From Escherichia coli (GTDB taxonomy: Bacteria; Pseudomonadota; Gammaproteobacteria; Enterobacterales; Enterobacteriaceae), in assembly GCF_050920415.1 (NCBI RefSeq), contig NZ_CP169309.1: a stretch of DNA of 64,000 nt, one strand, 5' to 3'. The translations under genes were made by a program, and so were the position numbers. Positions 5,699-51,938 of the stretch are shown piece after piece (the stretch's first letter is position 1; each line of letters begins with the position of its first letter). The notes under the pieces were generated by a model. The model saw nothing but the letters and a program-made list of their open reading frames with translations, was not told the origin of the DNA and ran no database searches.

Positions 5699-5722
5699 TC
5701 TTTTGTAGATTACACTTGCTTA

Positions 5723-5749
5723 AAATCCCGCCATCGGCGGGATTTTTTA
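5723..5749 (+). terminator. Rho-independent terminator after hns
   Basis: AAATCCCGCC-ATCG-GGCGGGATTT perfect stem with A-run upstream and T-run downstream (possibly bidirectional). Confidence 0.75.
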
Positions 5750-38415: not shown

Positions 38416-38469
38416 GTACGAAATTGACCAGTCAGCGCAAACTGACTGGTCAGCAAACGGCATTATTTG

Positions 38470-40818: not shown

Positions 40819-41064
40819 TTAATTTGTTGTCTCATGAGGTTTCGCTAAATCTCATGAAGAGCGCAAAAGTATATAAAATCCACGCAATTGCGTGGATTTT
40901 TTCATTTCACCGAGTCCTAACCATTCTTATAACATCCTACACTTTTGTGCTTATTGCCTATAGTGAACCACGAGAATAATTAAAGACATAAGTGTTCAGA
41001 TGAGGGATATCTCATTAGCAATGAGATCACGTAAGTTTGTGTTCCACTGCACATCAGACACCTT

Positions 41065-48501: not shown

Positions 48502-49920
48502 ATGGTAAACCTGGTCATAGTTTCACATAGCGCCCGACTGGGAGAAGGTGTCGGTGAATTAGCCCGTCAGATGTTAATGAGTGATAGCTGTAAAATCGCC
48601 ATTGCCGCGGGAATTGACGATCCCCAAAATCCCATTGGTACCGATGCCGTCAAAGTGATGGAGGCCATCGAGTCCGTTGCCGATGCCGACCATGTGCTGG
48701 TGATGATGGATATGGGTAGCGCATTATTGAGTGCTGAAACTGCACTGGAGTTGCTGGCCCCCGAGATCGCCGCAAAAGTACGTTTGTGTGCGGCACCGTT
48801 AGTCGAAGGTACACTGGCAGCAACAGTCAGCGCGGCCTCGGGAGCAGATATCGACAAAGTTATCTATGACGCCATGCATGCGCTGGAAGCCAAACGTGAA
48901 CAACTGGGTTTACCGTCCTCCGACACCGAAATCGCTGACACATGTCCTCCGTACGATGAAGAAGCCCATTCTCTGGCCGTGGTCATTAAAAACCGTAACG
49001 GCCTTCATGTACGTCCGGCCTCCCGGCTGGTTTATACCTTATCGACATTTAATGCCGATATGTTGCTGGAGAAAAACGGTAAATGCGTCACGCCGGAGAG
49101 TATTAACCAGATCGCGCTACTACAAGTCCGCTATAACGATACGCTGCGCCTGATTGCGAAAGGGCCAGAAGCTGAAGAGGCGCTGGTTGCTTTCCGTCAG
49201 CTGGCTGAAGATAACTTTGGTGAAACGGAAGAAGTTGCTCCGCCTACTCAGCGGCCCATTCCGCCTGTTTCGGGTAAAGCCTTTTATTATCAACCAGTTT
49301 TATGTACGGTACAGGCAAAATCAACTCTGACCGTGGAAGAAGAACAAGAACGATTACGTCAGGCAATTGACTTCACGTTATTAGATCTGATGACGTTAAC
49401 AGCGAAAGCAGAAGCGAGCGGGCTTGACGATATTGCCGCAATCTTTTCTGGTCACCATACACTGTTAGATGATCCAGAACTGCTGGCGGCGGCAAACGAA
49501 TTTCTTCAGCATGAGCATTGCACAGCAGAATATGCCTGGCAGCACGTTCTTAAAGAACTAAGCCAGCAATACCAACAACTGGATGATGAATATTTACAGG
49601 CTCGCTATATCGATGTGGACGATCTTCTACATCGCACCCTAATCCACCTGACGCAAACGAAAGAAGAACTCCCGCAATTTAACTCGCCAACCATTTTACT
49701 GGCGGAGAACATTTATCCGTCTACGGTTCTGCAACTGGATCCGGCGGTTGTAAAAGGGATCTGCCTTAGCGCCGGAAGTCCGGTATCCCACAGCGCCCTA
49801 ATCGCCCACGAACTGGGGATTGGCTGGATTTGCCAGCAGGGTGAGAAACTGTATGCGATACAACCTGAAGAAACGTTAACGCTGGACGTTAAAACGCAAC
49901 GTTTCAGCCATCAGGGATAA
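48502..49920 (+). CDS. dhaM: PEP-dependent dihydroxyacetone kinase phosphotransferase subunit DhaM (EIIA-HPr-EI-like fusion)
   Basis: 472 aa from ATG 48502 (MVNLVIVSHSARLGEGVGELARQM...); HPr-like segment with NGLHVRPAS. Confidence 0.93.
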   Translation: MVNLVIVSHSARLGEGVGELARQMLMSDSCKIAIAAGIDDPQNPIGTDAVKVMEAIESVADADHVLVMMDMGSALLSAETALELLAPEIAAKVRLCAAPLVEGTLAATVSAASGADIDKVIYDAMHALEAKREQLGLPSSDTEIADTCPPYDEEAHSLAVVIKNRNGLHVRPASRLVYTLSTFNADMLLEKNGKCVTPESINQIALLQVRYNDTLRLIAKGPEAEEALVAFRQLAEDNFGETEEVAPPTQRPIPPVSGKAFYYQPVLCTVQAKSTLTVEEEQERLRQAIDFTLLDLMTLTAKAEASGLDDIAAIFSGHHTLLDDPELLAAANEFLQHEHCTAEYAWQHVLKELSQQYQQLDDEYLQARYIDVDDLLHRTLIHLTQTKEELPQFNSPTILLAENIYPSTVLQLDPAVVKGICLSAGSPVSHSALIAHELGIGWICQQGEKLYAIQPEETLTLDVKTQRFSHQG

Positions 49921-49929
49921 ACCACCGTT

Positions 49930-49957
49930 CGGATGGCATCGTTCTGATGCCATCCGG
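49930..49957 (+). terminator. Strong stem-loop downstream of dhaM (REP-like or terminator)
   Basis: Perfect 11-bp inverted repeat CGGATGGCATC-GTTCT-GATGCCATCCG starting 10 nt after the dhaM stop; T-run is displaced about 20 nt. Confidence 0.4.
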
Positions 49958-50240
49958 CAATTTACTCTGCTCTGATATTTTTTAACTACCTGTTATATTT
50001 TTTACCAAATCATGATGATTTTTTCTGCGCTAATCGCAAACCAAACGTCGCTGGCTGGCTAATAAACAGACTTTATTTAATTACTCTATTTCACCCTTAT
50101 TTATCCCTTTAATCTCCTTTTCCAAAATGCCTGACAGTTCGCAGAATGAGATTTCGATCATGCAGTTAGTGCGATCCTGAACTAAGGTTTTCTGATACTT
50201 GAATACCGTTTTGTTCGGTTTCGCCCAAGGAGAATGATTG

Positions 50241-51938
50241 ATGAAAGCCACCGCCCCTCCTCGCCCGCAAAAAATAGCGTTAATTCCCGCCTGCGTTTTG
50301 TTGTGTTTCGCTGCGCTAGCGGTGCAGGCAGAAGAAACGCCAGTAACGCCACAGCCGCCTGATATTTTGTTAGGGCCGCTGTTTAACGATGTGCAAAACG
50401 CCAAACTTTTTCCGGACCAAAAGACCTTTGCTGATGCCGTGCCGAACAGCGATCCGCTAATGATCCTTGCAGATTATCGAATGCAGCAAAACCAGAGCGG
50501 CTTTGATCTGCGCCATTTCGTTAACGTCAATTTCACTCTGCCGAAAGAGGGAGAGAAATATGTTCCGCCAGAAGGGCAGTCGCTGCGCGAACATATTGAC
50601 GGACTTTGGCCTGTATTAACGCGTTCTACCGAAAACACCGAAAAATGGGATTCTCTGTTACCGCTGCCGGAACCTTATGTCGTGCCGGGCGGACGTTTTC
50701 GCGAGGTATATTACTGGGACAGTTACTTCACCATGTTAGGGCTTGCCGAAAGCGGTCACTGGGATAAAGTCGCGGATATGGTGGCCAATTTTGCTCATGA
50801 AATAGACACTTACGGGCATATTCCCAACGGCAACCGCAGTTACTATTTAAGCCGCTCGCAACCGCCATTCTTTGCCCTGATGGTAGAGTTACTGGCGCAG
50901 CATGAAGGCGATGCCGCGTTGAAGCAATACCTGCCGCAAATGCAAAAAGAATATGCTTACTGGATGGACGGTGTTGAAAACCTGCAAGCCGGACAACAGG
51001 AAAAACGCGTTGTAAAACTTCAGGATGGTACCCTTCTCAACCGCTACTGGGACGATCGCGATACGCCACGACCAGAGTCATGGGTGGAAGATATTGCCAC
51101 CGCCAAAAGCAACCCGAACCGGCCTGCCACTGAAATTTACCGCGACCTGCGCTCTGCCGCTGCGTCTGGCTGGGATTTCAGCTCGCGCTGGATGGACAAT
51201 CCGCAGCAGTTAAATACCTTACGCACCACCAGCATCGTACCGGTCGATCTGAACAGCCTGATGTTCAAAATGGAAAAAATCCTCGCCCGCGCCAGCAAAG
51301 CTGCCGGAGATAACGCGATGGCAAACCAGTACGAAACGCTGGCGAATGCCCGTCAAAAAGGGATCGAAAAATATCTGTGGAACGATCAACAAGGCTGGTA
51401 TGCCGATTACGATCTGAAAAGTCATAAAGTGCGCAATCAGTTAACCGCTGCCGCCCTGTTCCCGCTGTACGTCAATGCGGCAGCGAAAGATCGCGCCAAC
51501 AAAATGGCGACGGCGACGAAAACACATCTGCTGCAACCAGGCGGCCTGAACACCACGTCGGTGAAAAGTGGGCAACAATGGGATGCGCCAAACGGCTGGG
51601 CACCGTTGCAGTGGGTCGCGACAGAAGGATTACAAAACTACGGGCAAAAAGAGGTGGCGATGGACATTAGCTGGCACTTCCTTACCAATGTTCAGCACAC
51701 CTATGACCGGGAGAAAAAGCTGGTGGAAAAATATGATGTCAGCACCACCGGAACAGGGGGCGGCGGTGGCGAATATCCATTACAGGATGGCTTTGGCTGG
51801 ACCAATGGCGTGACGCTGAAAATGCTGGATTTGATCTGCCCGAAAGAGCAACCGTGTGACAATGTTCCGGCGACGCGTCCACTCAGTGAATCAACAACAC
51901 AGCCGCTAAAACAAAAAGAGGCGGAACCTACGCCTTAA
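50241..51938 (+). CDS. treA: Periplasmic trehalase
   Basis: 565 aa from ATG 50241 ([32 protein letters not shown]...); AAGGAGA SD 7 nt upstream; signal peptide; termini differ from the K-12 sequence I recall. Confidence 0.94.

Follow-up and report, generated by a model that had tools for sequence, protein, structure and literature searches.

A perfect stem-loop directly after dhaM in Escherichia coli and the mapped 3' end of the dhaM transcript

In Escherichia coli, dhaM is the last gene of dhaKLM and is followed on the same strand by treA, and the spacer between the two genes begins with a perfect hairpin a few nucleotides past the dhaM stop codon. The locus raises the question of what such a hairpin does at the end of an operon: it might be a simple terminator that separates the dha operon from treA, a member of the REP family of palindromes, or an element that marks and stabilizes the 3' end of an mRNA. 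A preliminary description of the sequence favoured the last two of these over the first. The hairpin was analyzed within a window of 64,000 nucleotides, the whole stretch of E. coli DNA under study (RefSeq assembly GCF_050920415.1, contig NZ_CP169309.1). Gene names follow RefSeq's record for strain 2013C-4282 of E. coli, whose sequence matches the window at 100% identity over the queried region. The features that enter the argument are these:

48502–49920, plus strand: coding sequence of dhaM, last gene of dhaKLM (RefSeq annotation of strain 2013C-4282 mapped on, list of open reading frames, and sequence)
49930–49940, plus strand: 5' arm of the hairpin, CGGATGGCATC (sequence and fold; unchanged in 7/7 E. 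coli sequences compared)
49941–49945, plus strand: hairpin loop, GTTCT (ATTCT in some E. coli strains)
49946–49956, plus strand: 3' arm of the hairpin, GATGCCATCCG (sequence, alignment, and fold)
49957–49960, plus strand: single-stranded tail of 4 nt, GCAA, in which 49960 is the equivalent of the K-12 Term-seq primary 3' end of dhaM
50040–50140, plus strand: candidate Rho loading (rut-like) tract, C-rich, G-poor, and AT-rich (proposed from composition)
50241–51938, plus strand: coding sequence of treA (RefSeq annotation of 2013C-4282)

Read 5' to 3' from the end of dhaM, whose stop codon is TAA (49918–49920), the sequence runs ...GGGATAA, ACCACCGTT, CGGATGGCATC, GTTCT, GATGCCATCCG, GCAATTTACTCTG..., and the hairpin lies about 285 bp 5' of the treA start. 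On the plus strand it occupies 49930–49956, 27 nt made up of a perfect 11-bp stem and a 5-nt loop. The start given in the preliminary description, at the tenth nucleotide after the dhaM stop codon and thus behind a 9-nt spacer, is correct, whereas the end given there, 49957, is one base too far and belongs at 49956; G49957 and T49929 could form a G-U wobble at most. Six of the 11 pairs are G-C, and the isolated hairpin has a folding energy of -19.4 kcal/mol. Within a 76-nt RNA context the energy is -23 kcal/mol against a mean of -11.7 kcal/mol in shuffled sequences (z = -4.2; 0 of 200 shuffles equalled it). Sequence and RNA fold therefore agree that a hairpin stands right after dhaM, and its existence is confirmed. 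The window has four perfect hairpins with a stem of 11 bp or more and a loop of 3–8 nt, against 0.17 in composition-matched simulations, which is above chance. The other three have different surroundings. The one at 38425–38452 (TGACCAGTCAG-CGCAAA-CTGACTGGTCA) has neither A nor U tracts. Those at 5722–5746 (AAAATCCCGCC-ATC-GGCGGGATTTT) and 40875–40900 (AAAATCCACGC-AATT-GCGTGGATTTT) have the order A-tract, stem, U-tract and look like bidirectional intrinsic terminators, and the sequence of the latter is found in an "orphan" K-12 Term-seq entry (1256636, minus strand).

Transcript ends mapped in K-12 place the hairpin at the end of an RNA. A Term-seq 3' end of dhaM was reported at NC_000913.3 1247656 on the minus strand and assigned to the class "primary," the label for the highest-scoring peak on the same strand no more than 50 bp past an annotated gene (Adams et al., 2021, eLife, PMC7815308, Supplementary file 1). 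The string listed for this end is GTCAGGGTTAAGCCACTGTTCGGATGGCATCGTTCTGATGTCATCCGGCAATTTACTCAGC, with the break point between ...CGGATGGCATCGTTCTGATGTCATCCGGCAA and TTTAC, and the end was called in the LB OD 0.4 sheet only (PMC7815308). The listed strings are 61 nt long and have the 3' end at string position 51, as verified on the thrL entry; a calculation of the coordinate from the dhaM stop codon agrees. The K-12 spacer contains the same hairpin with a single C-to-T change in the 3' arm, and alignment of the spacers, with 95% mean column identity, transfers the K-12 coordinate to window position 49960. The K-12 transcript ends 4 nt beyond the last paired base (...CAUCCG-GCAA-3'). A check of Term-seq 3' ends near 49957, which the preliminary description had proposed, is thus positive in K-12. 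In that strain the hairpin marks the in vivo 3' end of dhaM, a result carried over to the window by homology. Since the end at +4 precedes the U residues of the tail, it is a processed end and not a point of release, whether polymerase is released by Rho or by the hairpin itself. A further Term-seq 3' end lies inside the dhaM reading frame in K-12 (NC_000913.3 1248695, minus strand, 419 nt from the start codon); its Rho score of 1.1 shows no signal, and its intrinsic-terminator score is low at 1.36 (PMC7815308). The TERMITe supplements (PMC12207403) make no mention of dhaM, and in PMC5927463 dhaM-dhaL-dhaK appears merely as an operon name.

The same K-12 study also located a region of Rho termination, with its peak at 1247110 on the minus strand (Adams et al., 2021, PMC7815308, Supplementary file 2). 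The peak lies 266 nt into treA, at about window position 50507, some 546 nt past the hairpin. Without bicyclomycin the 3'-end count was 176 in the upstream 800-nt window and 9 in the downstream one; with the drug it was 195 and 151 (PMC7815308). The resulting Rho score is 15.1 (p = 5.7e-24), at a resolution of 800 nt and with a possible contribution from treA-promoter transcripts (PMC7815308). Between the hairpin and this region, the C/G ratio rises from 1.1 to 4.75 within 200 nt after the hairpin and peaks at 50060–50137, where 78 nt contain 19 C and 4 G; this C-rich, G-poor tract stands 100–180 nt downstream of the hairpin.

A stem-loop end of this kind has precedent. Rho-dependent transcripts of E. 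coli have precise ends just past stable stem-loops without U-tracts, with more C than G in the sequence beyond, the tails being trimmed back to the stem-loops by PNPase and RNase II; REP elements make up only 24% of these stem-loops (Dar and Sorek, 2018, PMC6061677). The dhaM hairpin is built like the members of this class. It is a stable stem-loop outside the REP family, with a precise 3' end (mapped in K-12 and transferred by alignment), neither a U-rich tail nor an A-tract, little U after the stem, and C in excess of G downstream. A bicyclomycin-sensitive region also lies downstream in K-12, and the read-through seen there may have its origin in dha transcripts. Trimming of the tail by exonucleases was described for the class, and at dhaM it is what we infer.

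The explanation that we consider probable, by a modest measure, is that the dhaKLM mRNA has this hairpin as its 3'-terminal stem-loop, with termination by Rho downstream, trimming back by exonucleases, and capping and stabilization of the transcript by the hairpin. RNA polymerase would pass the dhaM stop codon and transcribe through the hairpin. Rho would then load on the untranslated C-rich, G-poor RNA, for which the tract at 50040–50140 is the putative rut site, and termination would be diffuse, in the dhaM–treA spacer or early in treA. The 3'-to-5' exonucleases PNPase and RNase II would trim the tail until they are blocked by the 11-bp stem, and a precise, protected 3' end would be left 4 nt beyond it. 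The hairpin would in this way set the 3' end of the mRNA and stabilize the transcript, and together with Rho it would insulate treA from dha transcription. The earlier suggestion of a transcript-stabilizing element is supported by the K-12 3' end 4 nt past the stem and by the non-canonical tail.

Variation within E. coli bears on the strand on which the hairpin acts. In a comparison of seven E. coli sequences, all have the same 5' arm, the loop reads either GTTCT or ATTCT, and the sole change in the stem turns a G-C pair into G-U. This change, C49950 to T, gives the 3' arm GATGTCATCCG of K-12, of an ST131 strain, and of three others, and it represents the common E. coli allele. In the K-12/ST131 allele the sense RNA remains fully paired (-16.7 kcal/mol), whereas an A-C mismatch arises in the antisense RNA (-12.2 kcal/mol). 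Because pairing is retained in the sense RNA only, a function in the dha-sense RNA is favoured over one as a symmetric DNA site. A function of the antisense strand was also considered and is disfavoured: that strand has no U-run next to the stem, and the K-12-type allele weakens the antisense fold alone. The changes seen in the stem are one-sided (G-C to G-U, and loss or gain of a terminal pair), with no compensatory double substitution among them. In the stem 1 of 22 sites is variable, in the remainder of the spacer 45 of 290, a difference that is not significant in this sample of seven sequences (p = 0.13).

The window itself represents an uncommon version of the locus. The 361-nt stretch 49880–50240, which covers the last 41 nt of dhaM and the spacer, has at least 99% identity in only 17 of 5322 matching E. 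coli records; nearly all other matching records show 90–95% identity across it, and the lineage of the window is about 92% identical to most E. coli. At this locus the window therefore belongs to a minority lineage or carries a recombinant segment. Of the matching places, twelve are on records labelled plasmid. The evidence on the 3' end and on Rho comes from K-12 and not from the lineage of the window, and the figure of about 92% over the 361 nt applies to the comparison. Just 3' of the hairpin, at 49972–49999 on the plus strand, there is a sigma-70-like promoter match (CTGATA, a 16-nt spacer, TATATT, and an extended TG), which is no more than chance predicts (1 match, 1.1 expected).

Comparison across Escherichia assigns the hairpin to dhaM. 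In E. whittamii it is kept after dhaM in the form CCGGATGGCAT-CGTAACT-ATGCCATCCGG, with one pair lost at the top and one gained at the base, and the gene downstream is a convergent one for a 451-aa transporter, not treA. Conservation of the hairpin without treA downstream means that it belongs to the 3' end of dhaM and not to the upstream region of treA. Two other loci, L004 3922–4050 ("E. coli" SCPM-O-B-8794) and L006 3922–4050 (Escherichia sp. E1V33), are missing about 190–200 bp of the dhaM–treA spacer, hairpin included, and there the dhaM stop codon abuts conserved treA-proximal sequence (compare window 49921–50130). These two loci and C. amalonaticus are free of the hairpin and have an intact dhaM with treA after a short spacer; the hairpin is therefore dispensable. 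Beyond the genus, most of the other Enterobacterales sampled have unrelated strong hairpins (-13 to -25 kcal/mol) that begin 3–24 nt past the dhaM stop codon. Tails are richest in U in the three Pantoea hairpins, with 5–8 T in the 10 nt after the stem. A stem-loop at the 3' end of dhaM is thus a recurring positional feature without sequence homology between genera.

Two further loci show rearrangements close to the hairpin. In Escherichia sp. MOD1-EC7003 (L003 3970–4030) the hairpin lacks two basal pairs (AAGATGGCATC...), and extra sequence that is absent from the window and from K-12 is present shortly past it, before the conserved motif TTTTTTAACT. In E. coli MS8324 (NZ_CP058917.1; L028 3721–5000) dhaM is cut off after about 80 codons, and AT-rich DNA of about 1.28 kb takes the place of its remainder, contains no open reading frame above 110 aa, and stops 3 nt before the hairpin; this replacement had no megablast match in other E. 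coli genomes (set of n = 5426) and no Rfam match.

The main rival to Rho termination with trimming back is a weak, non-canonical intrinsic terminator with an interrupted AAUUUACUCU tail, in which the tail GCAAUUUACUCU would release some polymerases about 7–9 nt past the stem and the RNA would then be nibbled to +4; we hold this as a tentative alternative, a possibility to be reckoned with rather than expected. The stem is stable enough at -19.4 kcal/mol, the tail contains UUU, the mapped K-12 end is sharp, and canonical U-tract terminators occupy the equivalent position after dhaM in Pantoea species. The sequence around the stem speaks against it. Of the features of an intrinsic terminator, the stable G+C-containing stem-loop is present and a U-rich tract of about 7–9 nt directly after the stem is absent: the tail is GCAATTTACT, as the preliminary description had it in stating that no U-run adjoins the stem, and its three U residues are at positions 5–7. 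An A-tract 5' of the stem is likewise absent. A consensus terminator scan of 49500–50400 returned 0 terminator-like sites, and scoring of the d'Aubenton-Carafa type gave the tail an nT of 0.37, against 2.6–5.2 in canonical tails, and a d-score of about -41. The empty scan and the non-canonical tail score bear out the earlier view that this is not a simple terminator. The canonical intrinsic terminators of the window, at 5722–5746 and 40875–40900, are similar to the hairpin in their perfect 11-bp stem, their energy, their place just past a gene end, and an adjoining RNA 3' end; unlike them, the hairpin has no direct U-tract or A-tract and fails both the scan and the tail score. The end at +4, lying before the U residues, cannot itself be the release point. 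The effect of bicyclomycin can be read in two directions. The strong rise of 3' ends downstream of the hairpin argues against intrinsic termination. The upstream count, 176 without and 195 with the drug, does not fall; this indifference fits trimming, and it fits Rho-independent end formation as well. Moreover, the bicyclomycin-induced ends could stem from treA-promoter transcripts, given the 800-nt windows and a peak about 546 nt away. Expression of treA is osmotically induced and RpoS-dependent and should be low in exponential LB. The 800-nt resolution of the Rho score, the possible input from the treA promoter, and the steady upstream count do not separate Rho termination with trimming from the intrinsic alternative.

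Three other explanations carry far less weight. REP elements are present in hundreds of dispersed copies in E. coli and are known to protect upstream mRNA and to be associated with Rho-dependent ends. The hairpin could accordingly be read as a REP/BIME-type palindrome, or a degenerate relic of one, that is bound by REP-associated proteins and stabilizes the upstream mRNA. Its overall size is similar, being that of an extragenic palindrome of about 30 nt; a block to exonucleases at an mRNA 3' end is plausible for both; and its stem base CGGATG ... CATCCGGC matches the REP stem base GCCGGATG ... ATCCGGCCTAC. By eye, CGGATG / ATCCGGC at the stem base is all that it has in common with K-12 REP1. 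The REP arm consensus is GCC[G/T]GATGCG[G/A]CG ... CTTATC[C/A]GGCCTAC, and a REP is an imperfect, bulged palindrome whose stem is directly flanked by GTAG/CTAC, the motif recognised by the REP-associated transposase. In contrast, the dhaM palindrome is perfect and without a bulge, searches for the REP arm patterns gave no hit at 49930–49956 even when 2 mismatches were allowed, and no GTAG or CTAC stands next to the stem, where the flanks are ACCACCGTT and GCAATTTACT and the nearest CTAC is about 30 nt downstream. The genome-wide motif search proposed in the preliminary description, run with a 45-nt query centred on the hairpin against complete E. coli genomes (n = 5426), found the sequence in 5319 genomes, at a median of 1 place per genome and a maximum of 3. 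A K-12 REP1 query of the same 45-nt length (L027:362–406) under the same settings served as positive control and had at least 40 places per genome in 5425 of the 5426. Near-copies of the 11-mer arm with 1 mismatch occur at four sites in the window, none with a matching hairpin, and were treated as chance matches. The K-12 record annotates no repeat feature in the dhaM–treA spacer, and the same table has none at the known REP1 locus either. Membership in the REP family is ruled out by the copy number, judged against the positive control, together with the consensus pattern searches, and we assign next to no probability to this reading, which the preliminary description had entertained.

As a perfect 11-bp inverted repeat with a 5-bp spacer located between dhaM and treA, the hairpin would also formally suit a dimeric transcription factor, for which it could be a palindromic DNA operator acting on treA or dhaKLM. 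We consider this highly improbable. The K-12-type allele breaks the symmetry of the DNA while RNA pairing is kept through G-U, and the site is about 285 bp from the start of treA. E. whittamii has kept the site with a gene other than treA downstream, and lineages that still have the treA-proximal upstream sequence have lost it. An RNA 3' end also maps to the site. Finally, a stable fragment from the 3' region of dhaM might have the hairpin as its own 3' end and act as a small regulatory RNA or a sponge, bound for instance by ProQ or Hfq. This is compatible with a Rho-terminated, trimmed dhaKLM mRNA, and we give it a slim chance. Small RNAs are known to arise as fragments of mRNA 3' ends, and a 3' end is mapped at a stable stem-loop here. 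No matching 5' end was found, however, and Hfq-binding terminators do not resemble the short non-U tail seen here. None of the papers listed by a literature search for dhaM with sRNA, ProQ, Hfq, or RIL-seq mentions dhaM, and Rfam 15 gave no meaningful family; its sole match, to a snoRNA model from nematodes, is at chance level (15.7 bits, E = 4.7, where the gathering score is 52).

The 3'-terminal stem-loop of dhaKLM is thus an ordinary one: this kind of element is well known, and its 3' end was already present in a published table. The reach of the finding beyond annotation is small. More speculatively, and with little expectation on our part, a stable 3'-derived fragment might bind a chaperone such as ProQ and act in trans, or the hairpin and Rho might form a tunable insulator that couples dha to the osmotically regulated treA under stress; if the insulator were real, the coupling of dha and treA would be rewired in those Escherichia lineages from which the hairpin is naturally deleted. 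For the operon itself, the analysis sets about window position 49960 as the 3' limit of the dhaKLM transcription unit. It adds one further example to the well-described rule that E. coli mRNAs have a stable stem-loop at the end even where a canonical terminator is missing. For annotation, where a strong hairpin without a U-run lies a few nucleotides past the last stop codon of an operon and is followed by C-rich, G-poor sequence, the simplest reading is a 3' cap that blocks exonucleases on a Rho-terminated transcript.
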